DNA of 31,131 nt from IMG/VR virus record IMGVR_UViG_3300045988_022899, positions 1-31,131 of that record, one strand, 5' to 3'. This DNA comes from a virus. Its lineage: Duplodnaviria > Heunggongvirae > Uroviricota > Caudoviricetes. A program made the position numbers and the translations under genes. Each line of letters opens with the position of its first letter. The stretch's first letter is position 1. Of the stretch, positions 1 through 21,240 are shown in pieces. Under the pieces are notes generated by a model. It saw only the letters and a list, made by a program, of their open reading frames with translations, searched no databases and was not told where the DNA came from.

Positions 1-756
1 TAGAACACCATCACCGGAGAAGCGTGAAATATCTATTTTCGATGCATCAACTATATATTCCCCTGCAGGAACATGAACAATTTTAGAGTTTAACTGTGCA
101 TTTATAAAAGCATTTGTATCATCATTAATTAAGTCTGCTTTTGCCCCAAAATCCTTTACGCTATAAACGTCACGCATCTTATCCTGGAACGTTCGGTATA
201 CTGCTCCAGAACCATACTGAATAAACCATCCGAAACCACCGACAACACCAGCAATTGCAGCATCCACATACTTACGCATTGAACGATTATTTACAGCATC
301 CTGCTCAAATGATGGATCTGCAAGGTTAGAAATTTTGTTTTGCTTTGCATCGTAATATTTTGCAAGCAACGAGGGCTTCATCAATGCACGTCTGAACCAC
401 CCAAAACATCGCTGGATCAGCATCGTCAGGTAGTCAAATGCATCCTCATGAACTTCGGGGAAAAATTTTCCCTGATTGCGAAGATCAGTCTCCTGCACCA
501 CATCAAGCACACGCTCTATCGTAATTCGCCAGCCAGCAGCAAGAGGCGACGGAAGAACCACTTCACCGCCACTATAAGTGCCCGCTCCAGTTACCTTATA
601 ACCGGTATCAAGCACCAATTCTGTTATGTTCCCGTTCAGATCAGACACCTGAACAACCAGGTCGGATTTTTTGAAAATACGGAAGGTATACGGAAATGAT
701 GTCGTAACGCCGTTACCTGTGTATTCGTTGTGGTCAACTTCGGTTGAGACCGTCAT
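1..756 (-). CDS. Tail fiber/tailspike, N-terminal 252 codons (gene continues beyond window start)
   Basis: ATG at 756 with GGAG RBS; minus-strand frame open to position 1. Translation MTVSTEVDHNEYTGNGVTTSFPYTFRIF... resembles the T7 gp17-type tail-fiber N-terminal domain; the last residues in the window (VKDFGAKADL...VHVPAGEYIVD) look like the start of a beta-helix enzymatic domain. Confidence 0.75.
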   Translation of the reverse strand, partial: MTVSTEVDHNEYTGNGVTTSFPYTFRIFKKSDLVVQVSDLNGNITELVLDTGYKVTGAGTYSGGEVVLPSPLAAGWRITIERVLDVVQETDLRNQGKFFPEVHEDAFDYLTMLIQRCFGWFRRALMKPSLLAKYYDAKQNKISNLADPSFEQDAVNNRSMRKYVDAAIAGVVGGFGWFIQYGSGAVYRTFQDKMRDVYSVKDFGAKADLINDDTNAFINAQLNSKIVHVPAGEYIVDASKIDISRFSGDGVL

Positions 757-1215: not shown

Positions 1216-1233
1216 AGGCCGCAAGAGCGGCCT
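1216..1233. terminator. GC-rich hairpin between convergent genes (possible bidirectional terminator)
   Basis: AGGCCGC-AAGA-GCGGCCT stem-loop sitting between the stop at 1209 and the stop at 1232. Confidence 0.45.
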
Positions 1234-1960
1234 ATCGTTTCGCTTTGTGCTCATCCCAGCACGTTTTGCACCATGCCATTAAGCCGTCCGCATTTTGATT
1301 ATTAGGGTAAAAGCTGGTTCGTTTTCTGCGGACATTACAAATTGGGCACCACTTCATATGGCGTGTATTCTTTGGGCCATCGAGACACCTTGCACACCAT
1401 TTAGTCAATCCATCTGGATTTTTTGACGATTTCCTGAATTTTTCATATGGAAGGTTTATTCTGCATCGCAAGCACTGCTTGCTACCACTTGAAACTCTGT
1501 TAGCTGATTCTTCTTTTGGCGGCGATACAGAAGGTATTCTTGCTGGCTCTGATATTGCCTGAGGTGCTTTTTTAGATGACTGAGACGATATGTCATCACC
1601 AGGGAATCTTCCATGATATGCCGGACGCGTTGACACTCCAGGTGGAATCTCAGCTGTAAACGGCTTTGGCTGAATCAGTTGCCTCTCTTTTGCTAACTCC
1701 TGCTGTTTATAATATGTCTGGATTACCGCACTATCATAAGCAGGAGGTGCGGAAATATTAGGCGCATTACCTCCAGTTTTTTGAAACTGAGTAGAGGTGT
1801 GTTCTATCACCTGTGTACGATTAATCGTTATCTCCCCATCTTCGGTCTTTATCGTTTTGTTATGATTAACGACCGTACGATCAGAGATCTTAGTCTTGTT
1901 CTGGTTGATAACGTAAATAATCACCGCAACCACACCAACAACTATCCAGAAAACTTCCAT
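1232..1960 (-). CDS. Membrane-anchored protein with C-terminal tandem Cys-rich (zinc-ribbon-like) repeats; function unknown
   Basis: ATG at 1960 with GAGGAA RBS. N-terminal hydrophobic helix (VFWIVVGVVAVIIYVI), Pro/Ser-rich linker, then two similar CxxC...DGL..WC..C units. Confidence 0.65.
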   Translation of the reverse strand: MEVFWIVVGVVAVIIYVINQNKTKISDRTVVNHNKTIKTEDGEITINRTQVIEHTSTQFQKTGGNAPNISAPPAYDSAVIQTYYKQQELAKERQLIQPKPFTAEIPPGVSTRPAYHGRFPGDDISSQSSKKAPQAISEPARIPSVSPPKEESANRVSSGSKQCLRCRINLPYEKFRKSSKNPDGLTKWCARCLDGPKNTRHMKWCPICNVRRKRTSFYPNNQNADGLMAWCKTCWDEHKAKR

Positions 1961-2088: not shown

Positions 2089-2354
2089 ATTTACATCGCA
2101 CTCCTCTTGTGCCATAGTAATCGGGCACTGGCAAAATCCAGTGCCGGGATTGGCGTCCCGGATTACTACAGAGGCACATATGCCGCATAAGCGGTTTTTT
2201 TATGTGTAAAGCGCACCTATTCTATGGTGGGCTGTGTGGGGGCACCGAAAGGTGCGCCGGGTCCTTTGTAGCCGGTTACGCCAACCCTGCACAGTTCACC
2301 ACCAACCGATTGGCGTCGGTAGTGGTGATTAACCTAACTACAAAGGTGATCACT

Positions 2355-3164: not shown

Positions 3165-3491
3165 ATGACAAAACTTGGATTCGTGATGAGAGGTCCGGTA
3201 AGAAGCGGAACTCATGCAAAGCGTAGCAAGAGTCGTATTTTTACTGGTAAGGTTGTAGCACGTAAATCAGCTATTGGCTCGTTCAATAGTGAAAATGCGG
3301 CATTGCGCCATATTTTTATCAGCACAAAGCCAAGAGCATCCGCTGATGTGCATACAATGTCTATTCCTATCACAAAGAATATAAAGCGGATAAAAAAGCT
3401 CTCATCTGCAGAATCAAAAGAGATATCTTTCCGCCAGCTTAACTCATTAGAAACGCATATGAAGGAAGAGGAATTCGATGTTTTTGAGTGA
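3165..3491 (+). CDS. Small basic protein, first gene of a coupled pair (candidate antitoxin/partner)
   Basis: ATG at 3165 with GGAGA RBS; Lys/Arg-rich N-terminus and acidic C-terminal tail; its stop overlaps the downstream start by 14 nt. Confidence 0.55.
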   Translation: MTKLGFVMRGPVRSGTHAKRSKSRIFTGKVVARKSAIGSFNSENAALRHIFISTKPRASADVHTMSIPITKNIKRIKKLSSAESKEISFRQLNSLETHMKEEEFDVFE

Positions 3492-3990
3492 GTATAGCGG
3501 GAAGGTTATACCTACTGGTGAGTTTAAAACTGATGACTTTCTGATTTCGCTAAAAGATGCTTTTAAACAACACTGGCGTCATGGTCATCATCCTGATCTG
3601 GGAAAAGATACTCTTTTTGAAAGACCAGACGAAGTATTAGGCTTCCATCTCAGAAAGGTTCATGTCAATATTGGTGAATATGCATCATATTCATACTCAT
3701 GTACTGAACAGTGTTGGGATGAGTGGTCATATGGATTGATTGATGAACAAGGAAATTACAGGCCAAAACCAACCAGTAACGCATATCTCATATATGCAGT
3801 CAATGAAATAAGAGATGCAGCCTTACTAGCTTATTGGGACCCGCCCGCACACACCAAAGCTAACGCAAAAGTTTGGATGGATTCCGTATTGAATTTCACA
3901 AAATTATTTCATGAACGAACGAATACAGCCCCACTTAGTAGAAATGTTTATCCGTGGGATTATTCGTACAAATCCAAAAAGCCTGCATAG
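3478..3990 (+). CDS. YafO-like toxin-domain protein (putative ribosome-dependent mRNA interferase)
   Basis: ATG at 3478 with GGAAGAGG RBS. Motifs HPDLGKDTLF, LRKVHVNI and AALLAYWDPPAH resemble the YafO-family FGRD / HIHL / LLLAIL.P.H pattern as recalled; not database-verified. The locus is AT-rich. Confidence 0.45.
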   Translation: MFLSEYSGKVIPTGEFKTDDFLISLKDAFKQHWRHGHHPDLGKDTLFERPDEVLGFHLRKVHVNIGEYASYSYSCTEQCWDEWSYGLIDEQGNYRPKPTSNAYLIYAVNEIRDAALLAYWDPPAHTKANAKVWMDSVLNFTKLFHERTNTAPLSRNVYPWDYSYKSKKPA

Positions 3991-4071
3991 TAGTTTTTTA
4001 TGGACGAAACAAAAGTCAGTGCTACACTCATTGACGCCACATTGAGGTGGCTTATAGATGGAAATTTCACA

Positions 4072-4233
4072 ATGAAAAAAGCATTTGCTGCACTGTTCGT
4101 TTTGTTGTCTCTGGTAGCTTCAACTCAGGCCTTTGCCGGTCGTTGTCAGCACGACAGCGATACTGCCGCTGACGGCTCCCGCTGCGGTGGGCGTTCTGCG
4201 GATTCCCGCCCGGGTGGCGGTGGCATTCGTTAA
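4072..4233 (+). CDS. Small secreted peptide (signal peptide MKKAFAALFVLLSLVASTQAFA, ~31-aa Gly/Cys-containing mature part)
   Basis: ATG at 4072 inside the longer track ORF; typical Sec signal with an AFA-G cleavage context; followed by a hairpin. Confidence 0.4.
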   Translation: MKKAFAALFVLLSLVASTQAFAGRCQHDSDTAADGSRCGGRSADSRPGGGGIR

Positions 4234-4239
4234 AAACAA

Positions 4240-4255
4240 GGCCGCGAAAGCGGCC
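4240..4255. terminator. Hairpin GGCCGC-GAAA-GCGGCC; intrinsic terminator for the minus-strand virion operon
   Basis: On the minus strand the hairpin is followed by TTGTTTTTA; it sits between convergent genes. Confidence 0.6.
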
Positions 4256-4256
4256 T

Positions 4257-4268
4257 GTGACATGTCAC
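4257..4268. repeat. 12-bp perfect palindrome GTGACATGTCAC (copy 1 of 3)
   Basis: Seen in sequence; overlaps the TGA stop of the 4265-4561 gene. Confidence 0.6.
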
Positions 4269-4561
4269 GTTCCTTTTCTGAATGCTAGCCATTCGAAAAA
4301 TGATGACATTCCACCGCAGACAATAGCAAAGATGATCCCACCAAAGAAGAGAAGGCCAGCCTGCCACCACTCCCACCGCCATACATCCACAGCGCCAACC
4401 ATACCAACAATCGCTCCAACAAATGGAATATAGCTCACGATGAAAGCAATGGGGGCTGCAATTATCCAGTGCAATCCCCACCATGATTCAAGCCCAGCCA
4501 TAATTGCTGCCAACTGAAAAAGACCAACGACGATATAAACAATGAATCCTATAGCTTGCAT
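4265..4561 (-). CDS. Small polytopic membrane protein (~98 aa, three predicted TM helices); holin-like or superinfection-exclusion-like
   Basis: ATG at 4561 with AGGTGA RBS (the track ORF starts at an upstream TTG); strongly hydrophobic segments. Confidence 0.55.
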   Translation of the reverse strand: MQAIGFIVYIVVGLFQLAAIMAGLESWWGLHWIIAAPIAFIVSYIPFVGAIVGMVGAVDVWRWEWWQAGLLFFGGIIFAIVCGGMSSFFEWLAFRKGT

Positions 4562-4574
4562 GTAGTCACCTAAT

Positions 4575-4748
4575 TTACCCAGTAAAAATAAGAGGTCTCC
4601 CCTCAATAAGGCTTGCAACAAGAACTACTCCCTGCACAACAAAGATGAACCAGCAAATAGCTTGAGTCTGAGGGTTAAGAAAATATTTGTAGCGGTCAAT
4701 AAATAACAATCCACCAGAAATTATCACACTCAAAATAATTAAAAACAC
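4575..4748 (-). CDS. Possible 57-aa hydrophobic peptide (two TM-like segments), GTG start
   Basis: Open frame directly after the TAA of the 4758-7232 gene, with AAGGAAG overlapping that stop; absent from the ORF track; speculative. Confidence 0.25.
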   Translation of the reverse strand: MFLIILSVIISGGLLFIDRYKYFLNPQTQAICWFIFVVQGVVLVASLIEGRPLIFTG

Positions 4749-4757
4749 AACACTTCC

Positions 4758-7232
4758 TTATTGCGGAGTGACATCCTGTGGTCGCCACCAGTATGTCTGG
4801 TTAAACTCTTTCTTCGAACGTTGCTCCATTTTACGTAAATAACCTGGTGAAAAATACTCCTGCATCTGGTTAAAGATCATGTGATCGAGAGCCGCCTTCA
4901 AGTACCAGAGATTCGCACCAGGCATCAAACCTTTCCCCAGCTTCACCAGATCACCACCAGTCTGCTCACTCTTCCCTTCCACAGCATTTAACGGTATGCC
5001 CTGAGCAATCTTCACTACATCATCAACCAGACCAGCTACCGGGCCAAGCATCGACGCCAGCGCGCCGCTCCCGTACCTAGTGTGGTCAGAGAAAAGAAAA
5101 TCACCGTACAACCCAGCCCCGCCACCTTTTAAAAATGCATTTATCCAGAATTTAACCATGTGGTCACCGGTCATTTCCTTTGGATTTCTCCCATTAATAA
5201 GATCAGTAATCTGCATGGAAAGAGCACCAAGCATGGTTGTGCTTGCTAAAAACGTTGCTATATATGCTGCACGCCCACCAGCAGACGGCATACCCATAGC
5301 GCGTGACCAGTGACGCATAACAACCGAGATAGGGAACGATTTAAACAGGAAAACACTTCTCGTTAATTCACCTTTCCATGTTCCACGCTGAAGACCAGAC
5401 CCTACGAACATCTGCTCACGTGCGCCCGGTGTAATAACAGCCATATCAACTTCTTCAGTTACGGCACCGAGCAGTTTACGCATTGCCTCAAATTTCACGC
5501 GTTCAGGCTCACCAAGATGTTTAACTGCTGAATCAGGGATACGCATAATGCTTTCCGGTGTCAGCATCGTATTATTACCGTTCCCCCAGTCCTCCTGTTG
5601 CGCCAGCTTCCATACGCTCCAGTCTGTGTCAGTAATCCCTTTACTTTTCAGGATACGAAAATCAGAGTCATCGAGGCTACGAAGGTCTGGTGTCCGTGAC
5701 ACTACTTCTCCCAGGCTTCCCATCATGGTTACGCCATAGGCGCGCTTGTGCGCATCTGACCATGCTGTAAGCCCACTGGCACGCATTACCGCCGTTGCCG
5801 CCCAACGAGACACAGACGGCCCCATATTATCCATCGCCCAGCGGTTAACGCTGCCAAGTAGAGATTCCATCGCCAGGCCAGCGCGGCGCGCCCGCGCAAG
5901 CTCAGTACGGTTCGTTGGGTCCATAGCTTCAAGCTGGTTGCGAAATAACTGGTTCATTGGAAGGTTGGTAACCTTCGCAGACAGATACATGGTTCCAAGA
6001 TCAGAGAACGATGACAGCAACGCGGATCCGAGTCTGCTGGCAACCAGCCAGTTGCGGATATTGTCAGACCATCGCGCGATGTGGGGATTCGCTACAGGCT
6101 GTGTTTTTCCGGAAATAAAGTTGTACAAGTTCTCTGTTTTGTTCGCCAGACGCTCGACGCTACCGGTTTTACTCGGGTTAGCTGTTGCCGTTTCTGCCTT
6201 AACCTGATCAAGAAGGGAGCGGAAAACATGATCGGGGTTTGGACCATATGTTTCCACCAGAGCAATATCTTTACTGATACCTTCCAGGTGACCGACCATG
6301 ATTTCCCATAGAGAGCGATCGCCATAAAGTTGCTGATATTGCAGATAGGAATCTGCATCTTTGAAATGTATCTGTCGTGATGCATTACCACGGTTAGCAC
6401 GTGCGCCGGAAATTCGCATTCCGGTATCAGTAAGCTTATTCAGCCCACCAGTAGCGATCGTGTTATAAGCCTCTCCAAGAAATGCAGACAACTCGGCATC
6501 GTTCATCAGTTGTCCATCGGCTCGGGTATAATATTTGCGATCCAGCTTACCTATAACATCGCTAACCCACTTATCCTTTGATACCGCCCCAACCTTTTCC
6601 ATAGAATGATGTTGAGGGATCCCCCAGTTTTCGAGATAGCCAATGTCCCCACCAGCATCATTAAACCGGCGGCGCAGCAGCTCTGTAACTTCTCTCCACG
6701 CCTTAGCACCTTTTCTTGCTTTAGCATTGCCAGTATTTTGCCCCCGCATTTCATATACCAGGTCACGTACGCCCGCTTCATCTTCAAACAGACCAAAAAA
6801 GCGAGGATCAACTGCTTCGAATGCCTCCTGCAATTGACTCAATGCATAATCACGAGTGGCTTTTGTTCTGGACTCAACAGAGAGGAAATTCGATTTACCG
6901 TCTGCATTAAAAGCAATAGTACGGTTAAGAGCGCCAAGTTTCCCATCAGACCCTTGATAGCTATTGATAAATTTATCCAATCTCTGACGCGCGGCTATAG
7001 TGAGAGCCACACGACGTTTCTTTAATGCCGCTTCTCGCTGTAATTCTTCAGATGCCAATTGTGCTGCTCGATATAGCCGCTCTGATTCGGAAAGTTGTCG
7101 CCACGACATCGGGTCATCACGAGCAATGGAGCGCATATTTCGATAAATGCGGTCTTCAATGTTCTGTATTTCTCGCGCCGTTAAAGTGCGCTGCGCCGCC
7201 TGCTGGACCGCTTGTATACATTCCTGTCTCAT
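4758..7232 (-). CDS. Large internal virion (ejection/core) protein, 824 aa
   Basis: Last large gene of the coupled virion operon downstream of the gp14-like gene; called by position and size. Confidence 0.5.
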   Translation of the reverse strand: MRQECIQAVQQAAQRTLTAREIQNIEDRIYRNMRSIARDDPMSWRQLSESERLYRAAQLASEELQREAALKKRRVALTIAARQRLDKFINSYQGSDGKLGALNRTIAFNADGKSNFLSVESRTKATRDYALSQLQEAFEAVDPRFFGLFEDEAGVRDLVYEMRGQNTGNAKARKGAKAWREVTELLRRRFNDAGGDIGYLENWGIPQHHSMEKVGAVSKDKWVSDVIGKLDRKYYTRADGQLMNDAELSAFLGEAYNTIATGGLNKLTDTGMRISGARANRGNASRQIHFKDADSYLQYQQLYGDRSLWEIMVGHLEGISKDIALVETYGPNPDHVFRSLLDQVKAETATANPSKTGSVERLANKTENLYNFISGKTQPVANPHIARWSDNIRNWLVASRLGSALLSSFSDLGTMYLSAKVTNLPMNQLFRNQLEAMDPTNRTELARARRAGLAMESLLGSVNRWAMDNMGPSVSRWAATAVMRASGLTAWSDAHKRAYGVTMMGSLGEVVSRTPDLRSLDDSDFRILKSKGITDTDWSVWKLAQQEDWGNGNNTMLTPESIMRIPDSAVKHLGEPERVKFEAMRKLLGAVTEEVDMAVITPGAREQMFVGSGLQRGTWKGELTRSVFLFKSFPISVVMRHWSRAMGMPSAGGRAAYIATFLASTTMLGALSMQITDLINGRNPKEMTGDHMVKFWINAFLKGGGAGLYGDFLFSDHTRYGSGALASMLGPVAGLVDDVVKIAQGIPLNAVEGKSEQTGGDLVKLGKGLMPGANLWYLKAALDHMIFNQMQEYFSPGYLRKMEQRSKKEFNQTYWWRPQDVTPQ

Positions 7233-21163: not shown

Positions 21164-21240
21164 GTGGCATTAGCTCAGTTGGACAGAGCAACCGCCTTCT
21201 AAGCGGTTTGTCGCAGGTTCGAATCCTGCATGCCACGCCA
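21164..21240 (+). tRNA. tRNA-Arg (anticodon UCU)
   Basis: Hand-folded cloverleaf: 7-bp acceptor stem GTGGCAT/ATGCCAC, anticodon stem ACCGC/GCGGT with loop CTTCTAA, T-arm GCAGG-TTCGAAT-CCTGC, 3' GCCA; resembles E. coli argU. Confidence 0.85.

Follow-up and report, generated by a model that had tools for sequence, protein, structure and literature searches.

The window, the whole 31,131-nt stretch of DNA analysed here, shares 99.7% identity with a prophage of Escherichia coli PCN033 and about 89-94% identity with phiV10-type phages, by which it can be assigned to an epsilon15/phiV10-like (Uetakevirus) prophage of E. coli. Within it, a minus-strand late virion/ejection operon meets a plus-strand C4-RNA/Bro-antirepressor operon, and the features around this meeting point are the following.

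1-738, minus strand: N-terminus of the tailspike, whose gene continues off the window
4072-4233, plus strand: SP53, a 53-aa precursor (WP_000708858.1 in E. coli PCN033; phrog_14503, E=2e-40)
4072-4137, plus strand: Sec signal peptide of SP53, 22 aa, predicted from its n, h and c regions
4239-4256, either strand: hairpin GGCCGC-GAAA-GCGGCC, with a T-run 3' of it on the minus strand and an A-run 5' of it on the plus strand
4265-4561, minus strand: TM98, 98 aa, ATG start (WP_001147903.1; phrog_3075, E=7e-54)
4567-4572, minus strand: Shine-Dalgarno sequence of TM98, AGGTGA, read from the sequence within the 13-nt spacer 3' of the TM57 stop
4575-4748, minus strand: TM57, 57 aa, GTG start, a membrane hairpin of two helices joined by a basic DRYKY loop
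4749-4760, minus strand: cassette junction cAATAAGGAAGTGTT, in which the stop codon of IVP-D is fused to an AAGGA Shine-Dalgarno sequence
4758-7232, minus strand: IVP-D ejection gene, 824 aa, the last large gene of the virion operon (phrog_684, E=0)

The product of 4758-7232 is, judged by similarity, a homologue of phiV10 p20 and epsilon15 gp17, that is, an IVP-D (T7 gp16-type) ejection protein. Its gene is 89% identical in DNA to phiV10 p20, and both epsilon15 gp17 and BcepC6B gp17 have been classed as IVP-D homologues (PMC4819975). TM57 and TM98 are the final genes of the late virion operon and lie between this last ejection gene and the tailspike gene, with the antirepressor (immI-like) module adjoining, and SP53 is the final gene of the opposing C4-RNA/antirepressor operon. 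The first-pass annotation had placed three ORFs here, a minus-strand pair directly after the last ejection-protein gene and a 53-aa gene converging on it; all three are present in the sequence, some 9-10 nt separate the IVP-D stop codon from the TM57 start, and the hairpin at 4239-4256 stands between the convergent genes. Their grouping into one cluster did not survive, as they fall into two transcription units that assort independently. The label of a single cluster is misleading because SP53 sits in the opposing operon, where it is found both alongside TM57 and TM98 and in their absence (33 of 80 loci); it is a separate accessory gene at the end of that operon.

Pairwise dN/dS values between genera are 0.14-0.30 for TM57, 0.03-0.18 for TM98 and 0.04-0.18 for SP53, and the three are therefore protein-coding genes and not chance ORFs, each conserved across enterobacterial genera under purifying selection. 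TM57, listed initially as a possible two-TM ORF with a GTG start, is confirmed as a genuine gene by its dN/dS together with its cross-genus conservation. Its homologues form 13 clusters of 67-98% identity (Escherichia, Citrobacter, Klebsiella, Salmonella, Enterobacter), among which the frame, length and start position are constant, GTG or TTG serves as the start codon throughout the genera, and the start always has an AAGGA(G) ribosome-binding site 5' of it. The gene is unannotated in PCN033, usually omitted by RefSeq and without a PHROG match; standard annotation systematically misses it. Its AlphaFold model consists of helices 2-20 and 26-49 (pLDDT 76), and the basic central loop favours an N-out/C-out orientation, for which the positive-inside rule is the only basis. 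In Salmonella, Citrobacter and Enterobacter, the partner of TM57 is a lipoprotein or a 92-aa membrane protein. A terminator-like hairpin in the 3' end of TM57 (4605-4589) was dismissed as a chance match, with three GC pairs only and stem bases that differ in BUCT711.

The N-terminus of SP53, MKKAFAALFVLLSLVASTQAFA followed by GRCQ, carries the textbook Sec signal that had been proposed for this product: a KK n-region, a 13-residue hydrophobic core and A-F-A ahead of the predicted cut, so that it reads as MKK / AFAALFVLLSLVA / STQAFA, then G, with the AxA cleavage site of a Sec-secreted peptide. A longer, 77-aa version starting at an upstream in-frame ATG at 4000 was rejected, because that start lacks a Shine-Dalgarno sequence and the homologues align from MKK. 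Processing would release a peptide of about 31 aa into the periplasm, where it probably forms a disulfide bond. The sequence of this mature peptide (CxHDxDxAxDGSRCGGRSADSRPGG, two Cys) is almost invariant; among 20 homologues the signal region varies and the mature region does not, and SP53 also occupies the terminal operon position in TL-2011b and Klebsiella phages. Near-invariance of the mature part across nine genera, with a drifting signal peptide, is easier to reconcile with a conserved target in the host than with a fast-evolving one in a phage, and PHROG places SP53 in the category 'moron, auxiliary metabolic gene and host takeover'. Both observations, together with the finding that the alternative cassettes all encode envelope proteins with no function assigned to them, speak for a reading in which the proteins of the locus are host-directed accessory factors with no anti-phage role, which would inhibit or modulate a host inner-membrane or periplasmic protein and thereby alter the surface, stress tolerance or fitness of the lysogen. 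A precedent exists in the same phage group, where epsilon15 encodes its own small two-TM alpha-polymerase inhibitor, a 66-aa seroconversion protein that, according to its annotation, inhibits a host inner-membrane enzyme, the O-antigen polymerase. That inhibitor differs from TM57 and TM98 in its locus, beside the O-antigen polymerase gene, and has no visible similarity to them; the window holds no O-antigen conversion genes beside the cassette, and the apparent expression of TM57 and TM98 from the late operon would be odd for a lysogen-fitness factor. This host-directed reading is regarded as unlikely.

TM98 is an integral membrane protein with Trp-rich acidic loops (ESWWG, DVWRWEWWQ), a basic C-tail, an invariant Pro46 and a glycine zipper (G49xxxG53xxG56A57). 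Its description as a three-TM protein is upheld as regards the membrane and is uncertain as regards the helix count, since the AlphaFold model (pLDDT 91) contains four helices (2-28, 32-42, 46-59 and 65-97) and the charges point elsewhere. Across 85 homologues, the acidic loops carry 0.07 and 0.33 K+R per protein and the termini are basic, which by the positive-inside rule only favours N-in/C-in, and from this family-wide distribution two TM helices with a re-entrant hairpin are the favoured topology. With both Trp-rich loops outside, a central proline-broken hairpin and a conserved glycine zipper, TM98 might be conceived as an oligomeric ion-conducting channel (viroporin-like, M1-P-M2), by which the membrane would be depolarised or conditioned for abortive infection, exclusion or timing. 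Pore domains of K+ channels do recur among its top fold matches, none of them significant; a significant fold match and a selectivity-filter motif, as in a tetrameric cation-channel pore (M1-P-M2), were both missing from TM98, and the channel is considered a long shot. The same low expectation attaches to the notion that TM98 founds a large uncurated family of M1-re-entrant-M2 glycine-zipper channels, a bacterial-virus 'viroporin' inserted downstream of the T7-type ejection gene in a conserved expression socket, which together with TM57 would gate or sabotage genome delivery at the inner membrane.

Homologues of TM98 amount to at least 746 representative clusters (50% identity, E<=1e-3), which extend from Enterobacterales to Alphaproteobacteria and Chloroflexota and often reside on prophages or integrated elements, and TM98 thus belongs to a sizeable membrane-protein family that has no curated model or description; a PDB sequence search with the TM98 profile returned zero matches. 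In Cronobacter, Salmonella and Yersinia, TM98 is found in the absence of TM57, an integrase adjoins it in one metagenome, and no contig location was found for the Dickeya homologue P0034. TM98-like domains are also fused to DUF805, RDD and MORN proteins; these partners gave no functional clue, and the domain may accordingly play a generic role in membranes.

Translation of the pair appears to be tied closely to the ejection gene. The IVP-D gene ends in TAA (4760-4758), which overlaps the ribosome-binding site for the gene that follows. The junction Shine-Dalgarno sequence lies 4-7 nt ahead of the first cassette gene, and in relatives an identical CAATAAGGA junction stands before five first genes that are unrelated. 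Each of the spacers, about 9-10 nt from IVP-D to TM57 and 13 nt from TM57 to TM98, holds a Shine-Dalgarno sequence, and TM57 and TM98 look coupled by these sites to the ejection gene and apparently late-expressed. The hairpin at 4239-4256 acts as a bidirectional intrinsic terminator of both convergent units; it is kept in BUCT711 and in phiV10, whose annotation lists it as a terminator. A promoter scan found no sigma-70-like site upstream of TM57 on the minus strand, and scans upstream of TM98 homologues at Yersinia and metagenome loci were uninformative; a promoter may lie within the IVP-D gene.

The comparative evidence comes from 80 loci whose IVP-D is at least 92% identical (92-100% over the C-terminal 63 residues). 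The slot after IVP-D is occupied by TM57 and TM98 in 35 of them, by an unrelated 46-aa two-TM hairpin protein in 25, by a 126-aa lipoprotein in 8, and by a 103-aa two-TM protein together with TM98 in one; the remaining 11 had no match to the probe proteins, and a 137-aa lipoprotein was present in all six of these that were read, so that lipoproteins fill the slot in at least 14 of the 80 loci. The exchange boundary, common to all 80 loci, falls exactly at the stop codon/ribosome-binding site of IVP-D, and at least five alternative cassettes stand behind a near-identical IVP-D. In epsilon15 the slot holds a different two-TM protein, gp18 of 64 aa, and phiV10, a viable phage, has neither TM57 nor TM98 and retains just the last 7 codons of SP53. 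The proteins epsilon15 gp18, phiV10 p21 and SPN1S_0020 share the slot of TM57, directly behind the gp17/IVP-D gene and ahead of the terminator, and are built like it, with two TM helices around a short basic loop within 46-64 aa; they differ from it in having no detectable sequence similarity and in belonging to PHROGs 7892 and 29212. The GC content of TM57 (36.2%), TM98 (46.5%) and SP53 (57.4%) departs from the 49-51% of the virion genes, to which hydrophobic codon usage may contribute in TM57 and TM98.

Taken together, these comparisons establish that all three are real genes, which are conserved, dispensable and exchanged horizontally, with no detectable kinship to holins or SieA. They are best read, on comparative grounds, as interchangeable accessory cassettes in a moron-like hotspot for envelope proteins, and of the roles offered by the first-pass annotation, that of morons is favoured by the replacement of cassettes among near-identical relatives. 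A classical moron is an autonomous unit that carries both a promoter and a terminator of its own; in the cassette a terminator alone is evident, translation is linked to that of the virion gene upstream, and the lack of a detected promoter for TM57 and TM98 would count against a classical moron. The presence, absence or replacement of the genes in close relatives and a base composition unlike that of their flanks are found here as in the lambdoid morons (HK97 gp15, lambda lom/bor), whose accessory envelope genes are likewise embedded within late structural operons or placed last in them. The site would serve as an expression socket, delimited by the terminator and by a conserved pair of stop codon and ribosome-binding site, into which different phage lineages would have inserted unrelated small cell-envelope proteins; the cassette of the window, TM57 plus TM98, would be translated from late-operon mRNA and inserted in the inner membrane.

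A further reading is that TM57 and TM98, made together with IVP-D, would help the phage's own ejection or assembly, by protecting the producer cell's membrane from premature insertion of ejection proteins, by aiding their handling or as a small hydrophobic component of the virion. The gene after IVP-D follows it tightly, at a distance of 9 nt here and 1 nt in Cronobacter and with a 4-nt overlap in the case of epsilon15 gp18, and such close translational coupling is consistent with a helper. TM98 homologues also recur just behind IVP-D genes whose products are only 24-26% identical, a constancy that could denote a functional tie to the phage's own ejection/assembly machinery instead. At least five unrelated cassettes, lipoproteins included, nevertheless follow a near-identical IVP-D, phiV10 is viable without the pair, and TM98 homologues are also found away from virion genes, beside an integrase or after an inserted opposite-strand gene, which together make a helper role decidedly improbable.

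Involvement in lysis, as holin, pinholin, antiholin or late modulator of lysis timing, was another of the earlier proposals. Like the holins lambda S105, the S21 pinholin and T7 gp17.5, TM57 and TM98 are small multi-TM proteins made with the late genes, and TM98 shares with them a glycine-rich helix, here a glycine-zipper helix, and a basic C-terminus; in T7-type phages, moreover, the holin gene lies away from the endolysin. TM57 matches no holin family, and TM98 gives only a sub-threshold match to Phage_holin_5_2 (E=0.027; 15.2 bits, where the cutoff is 29.2), which is found in just 2 of 31 members of its family. The predicted topology also appears to differ from that of holins, the C-tail is short and no endolysin is adjacent; the charges, under the positive-inside rule only, speak tentatively against class I (N-out/C-in) for TM98 and class II (N-in/C-in) for TM57. 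Beyond the tailspike, the PCN033, epsilon15, Citrobacter and Yersinia relatives have a complete lysis cassette of two holin-family genes, an endolysin and a spanin, lipoproteins alternate in the slot discussed here, and phiV10 manages without TM57 and TM98. TM57, TM98 and SP53 are accordingly not supported as holins or pinholins, and a lysis role is rated the least probable of the alternatives.

The function that we tentatively prefer for the accessory hotspot, with slightly less than even confidence, is the exclusion of superinfecting phages through an action of its products on the envelope. As the most likely mechanism, TM57 and TM98 would disturb the ejection conduit of the incoming phage as it assembles or inserts at the inner membrane, in parallel to SieA of P22; this could take place in lysogens, provided that there is an internal promoter, or else late in infection. 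SieA blocks DNA injection, its escape mutations lie in the ejection proteins gp16 and gp20, and sieA is carried by 22 of 66 P22-like phages (PMC10883804). SieA resembles TM98 in being small, in residing in the inner membrane with some three hydrophobic segments and in occurring in some relatives only; its gene, like TM57 and TM98, lies in the interval from the last ejection gene to the tailspike gene and neighbours an antirepressor module under antisense-RNA control. Another inner-membrane exclusion protein is encoded by a lambdoid moron, HK97 gp15 (PMC3594210).

The analogy to the sieA position, already drawn in the first-pass annotation, thus stands in terms of location and fails in terms of homology, strand and promoter. 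Homology to SieA was rejected, since its comparison with a profile of 31 TM98 homologues gave an hhalign probability of 0.2% over 7 aligned columns, and the SieA motif FxRYPxEAxxFNK is absent from TM57, TM98 and SP53. SieA, of 162-164 aa, is encoded on the strand opposite to gene 16 from its own promoter, a layout not shared by TM57 and TM98, which are co-oriented with the ejection gene and Shine-Dalgarno-coupled, and the ejection proteins here are of the T7 IVP-D type, in contrast to the gp16 type of P22. Exclusion in a lysogen requires expression from a repressed prophage; the lack of a detected promoter and the late-expressed appearance of the genes count against it. Also against exclusion, Pfam, NCBIfam, PADLOC, PDB sequence and fold searches were empty or non-significant: scans of the three proteins and of the alternative-cassette proteins with Pfam, NCBIfam, PHROG and PADLOC yielded PHROGs of unknown function and sub-threshold noise only, and the PADLOC defence models had no match at E<=0.1 for the three proteins or their neighbours. 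The recurrence of TM98 behind divergent IVP-D genes and the fusions of TM98-like domains to DUF805, RDD and MORN proteins weigh on the same side. A literature search on the RefSeq accessions and on the name 'transmembrane anchored protein' found nothing relevant.

If TM57 and TM98, or the alternative cassettes, do block genome delivery, they would constitute the first exclusion system against an ejectosome of the T7/epsilon15 type (IVP-D), and would offer a natural panel of interchangeable inhibitors with which to probe how the conduit crosses the inner membrane. As about 4% of complete E. coli genomes carry the TM57/TM98 cassette, it could also affect host range in phage therapy with O-antigen-specific podophages.

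Around the three small genes, 2 kb of the window match a prophage of E. coli PCN033 at 99.7% identity and phiV10-type phages (genus Uetakevirus, epsilon15 group) at 89-94%. The virion operon lies on the minus strand in the order small terminase, large terminase, portal, capsid and three large internal proteins, the last of which (IVP-D) is the counterpart of phiV10 p20 and epsilon15 gp17. The latter is a homologue of T7 internal virion protein D (gp16), an ejection protein reaching the inner membrane, according to Hardies et al. (PMC4819975). The following features are relevant:

1-738, minus strand: tailspike N-terminal (head-binding) domain; ORF continues past the left end of the window
2125-2201, plus strand: isrK Hfq-binding RNA (Rfam 76.8 bits, above gathering score), 5' end of the Bro-N/antirepressor ORF
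2220-2306, plus strand: C4 antisense RNA (Rfam 79.5 bits, above gathering score), 5' end of the same ORF
4072-4233, plus strand: SP53, 53 aa, with a canonical Sec signal (MKK, 13-residue hydrophobic core, AFA followed by G)
4239-4256, both strands: GC-rich terminator hairpin, T-run after it (minus strand) and A-run before it (plus strand)
4265-4561, minus strand: membrane protein TM98, 98 aa, ATG start six bases after AGGTGA
4575-4748, minus strand: two-TM protein TM57, 57 aa, GTG start four bases after AAGGAAG
4758-7232, minus strand: IVP-D, 824 aa, phrog_684

With the tailspike N-terminus at 1-738, the small genes fall within the variable stretch that separates the tailspike from the last ejection gene, and since the tailspike leaves the window at its left end, the lysis cassette, which follows it in relatives, lies beyond the window. 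A tRNA gene (21164-21237, plus strand, Rfam 71.8 bits) is situated between the portal and terminase regions, opposite in strand to the virion operon.

All three ORFs of the first-pass annotation are present at the positions given there, and the 57-aa GTG-start ORF, regarded there as merely possible, is a real gene, although the RefSeq annotation of PCN033 contains the 53-aa and 98-aa genes and omits it. Escherichia, Citrobacter, Klebsiella, Salmonella and Enterobacter all contain homologues of it (56-58 aa, 67-98% identity) that keep the start position, and each of these five genera uses GTG or TTG as the start codon. The TM57 ribosome-binding site opens with the TAA that ends the ejection gene, and Klebsiella phage BUCT711, despite a different spacer sequence, retains this site along with the start position and frame. 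Between-genus dN/dS (Nei-Gojobori) was 0.14-0.30 for TM57, 0.03-0.18 for TM98 and 0.04-0.18 for SP53.

Instead of the single cluster originally proposed, the genes form two transcription units divided by the hairpin at 4239-4256, which separates the SP53 and TM98 stop codons and corresponds to the terminator annotation of phiV10. The virion operon closes with TM57 and TM98, each behind a short spacer (9 and 13 nt, respectively), and a scan of the preceding 650 nt showed no sigma-70-like site at a threshold that elsewhere in the operon gives about one match every 660 nt. SP53 is the terminal gene of a plus-strand unit that opens with isrK-like and C4 antisense RNA genes and a Bro-N antirepressor and continues with a YafO-like toxin pair, and it also comes last in TL-2011b and in Klebsiella phages bearing other virion modules. 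Given the isrK and C4 matches, this unit looks like a P1-type immI (C4-controlled antirepressor) module.

The overlapping pair in this operon encodes a 108-aa protein (3165-3491, plus strand, phrog_5933) and a 170-aa protein (3478-3990, plus strand) that RefSeq assigns to the YafO-family type II toxins, its match to Pfam YafO_toxin being below threshold (E=9.5e-4, 19.7 bits versus 25). The pair is AT-rich (39-40% GC), missing from phiV10, and a possible toxin-antitoxin or defence moron. In phiV10, the end of the Bro-N gene abuts the last seven SP53 codons and the shared terminator (phiV10 positions 4990-5025), a deletion scar left by the loss of both pair members and the bulk of SP53. Between the gp19-like gene and the antirepressor, an antisense 242-aa ORF (1232-1960, minus strand; phrog_6762) has an N-terminal TM helix, two C-terminal Cys-rich zinc-ribbon repeats and weak matches to endonuclease VII/Lar-like and Stc1 domains; the equivalent stretch of TL-2011b is annotated as a misc_feature only.

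The slot between the IVP-D stop codon and the terminator was surveyed in 80 viral contigs whose IVP-D is at least 92% identical to that of the window, with the following content:

35 of 80 loci: TM57 plus TM98, always paired, with identical spacing
25 of 80: an unrelated 46-aa two-TM protein (phiV10 p21 type)
8 of 80: a 126-aa lipoprotein, mostly preceded by a hydrophobic ORF of about 41 aa
11 of 80: no probe protein; all six read have a 137-aa lipoprotein at the same start position
1 of 80: a 103-aa two-TM protein, then TM98

The junction CAATAAGGA is common to all cases, the first cassette gene starting 4-7 nt downstream, and SP53, present in 33 loci of the 80, goes with any type of cassette. 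In epsilon15 the slot holds another unrelated two-TM protein, gp18 (64 aa), its gene overlapping the stop codon of gp17. Beyond E. coli the modules come apart: the gene after TM57 encodes a lipoprotein in Salmonella and Citrobacter and a 92-aa membrane protein in Enterobacter, while TM98 directly follows the IVP-D gene in Cronobacter (stop-to-start gap of 1 nt) and in a different Salmonella phage, adjoins an integrase in a metagenomic prophage, and lies beyond an inserted opposite-strand gene in Yersinia kristensenii. Together with the absence of TM57 and TM98 from plaque-forming phiV10, where SP53 is reduced to its last seven codons, and the GC content of TM57 (36% versus 49-51% for virion genes), these results show that TM57, TM98 and SP53 are dispensable, horizontally exchanged accessory genes whose alternatives are all cell-envelope proteins, which favours the moron option of the first-pass annotation. 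The Yersinia insert (4539-4976 of that locus, minus strand), an AT-rich gene for a 145-aa signal-peptide protein, separates the TM98 homologue from the large ejection gene, with divergent start codons 24 nt apart; it is a further secreted accessory gene of the same hotspot.

TM57 is predicted to be a helical hairpin (helices 2-20 and 26-49, pLDDT 76) with a basic DRYKY loop, a design shared with phiV10 p21 and epsilon15 gp18 without sequence similarity. The TM98 model is confident (pLDDT 91; helices 2-28, 32-42, 46-59 and 65-97), and its family counts 52 clusters when grouped at 90% identity, with 746 representatives at E<=1e-3 in a library of 1.8 billion proteins. It extends to Alphaproteobacteria and Chloroflexota, and the domain is at times repeated in tandem or joined to DUF805, RDD or MORN modules. 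Two Trp-rich acidic loops, Pro46 and G49xxxG53xxG56A57 are conserved. Among 85 single-domain members both loops nearly lack Lys/Arg, and the N-terminus and above all the C-tail are basic; under the positive-inside rule this distribution favours an N-in/C-in protein with a re-entrant, proline-broken central segment over the three-TM, N-out form of class I holins. A channel or viroporin-like activity is very unlikely. In Microvirga, Ensifer and an uncultured alphaproteobacterium (four loci, about 5300-5650), a conserved membrane protein of about 100 aa with a PYGYYTFLR motif is encoded next after the TM98 homologue, and one of these loci has serine-recombinase genes close by; this protein may be a second conserved partner of the family on integrated elements. 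Across nine genera, SP53 combines a variable signal peptide with a nearly invariant mature part (CxHDxDxAxDGSRCGGRSADSRPGG), which suggests processing to a periplasmic peptide whose target is conserved.

The holin or pinholin identity initially considered was not sustained: the sole family match was a sub-threshold one of 15 bits in 2 of 31 homologues, in relatives complete lysis cassettes sit after the tailspike and lipoproteins fill the small-gene slot, and phiV10 is viable without these genes. A lysis function is highly improbable. An auxiliary role in the phage's own ejection machinery, to which the recurrence of the synteny with IVP-D genes only 24-26% identical lends support, is quite unlikely, and an obligatory partnership is rejected because near-identical IVP-D proteins carry unrelated cassettes. 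Hypervariable slots with inner-membrane proteins and lipoproteins are typical of exclusion or lysogenic-conversion morons (PMC3594210); a host-directed modulator is unlikely, and we tentatively prefer envelope-acting exclusion proteins, given this slot type and the sieA-like location. As suggested in the first-pass annotation, the location matches that of P22 sieA, in the interval from ejection genes to tailspike and adjoining an antisense-RNA-controlled antirepressor module (mnt-arc-ant/sar in P22, the immI-like unit here). However, there is no detectable homology to SieA, and in P22 sieA runs counter to the ejection genes and is transcribed from a promoter of its own, whereas TM57 and TM98 end the virion operon on the ejection-gene strand. 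PADLOC gave no matches to known defence systems. As exclusion proteins, TM57 and TM98 would act at the inner-membrane step of incoming genome delivery. The main weakness of the exclusion reading is that both look late-expressed, and exclusion would therefore operate during lytic growth or need an undetected promoter within the IVP-D gene.

Accessory envelope-protein cassettes in temperate phage late regions are of a kind already well known; 216 complete E. coli genomes out of 5,426 carry this one. For the three families there is no described function, and no literature on them was found; what is new is the exact plug-in arrangement downstream of the IVP-D gene, the validation of a commonly unannotated 57-aa gene and the recognition of the large, uncurated membrane-protein family to which TM98 belongs.
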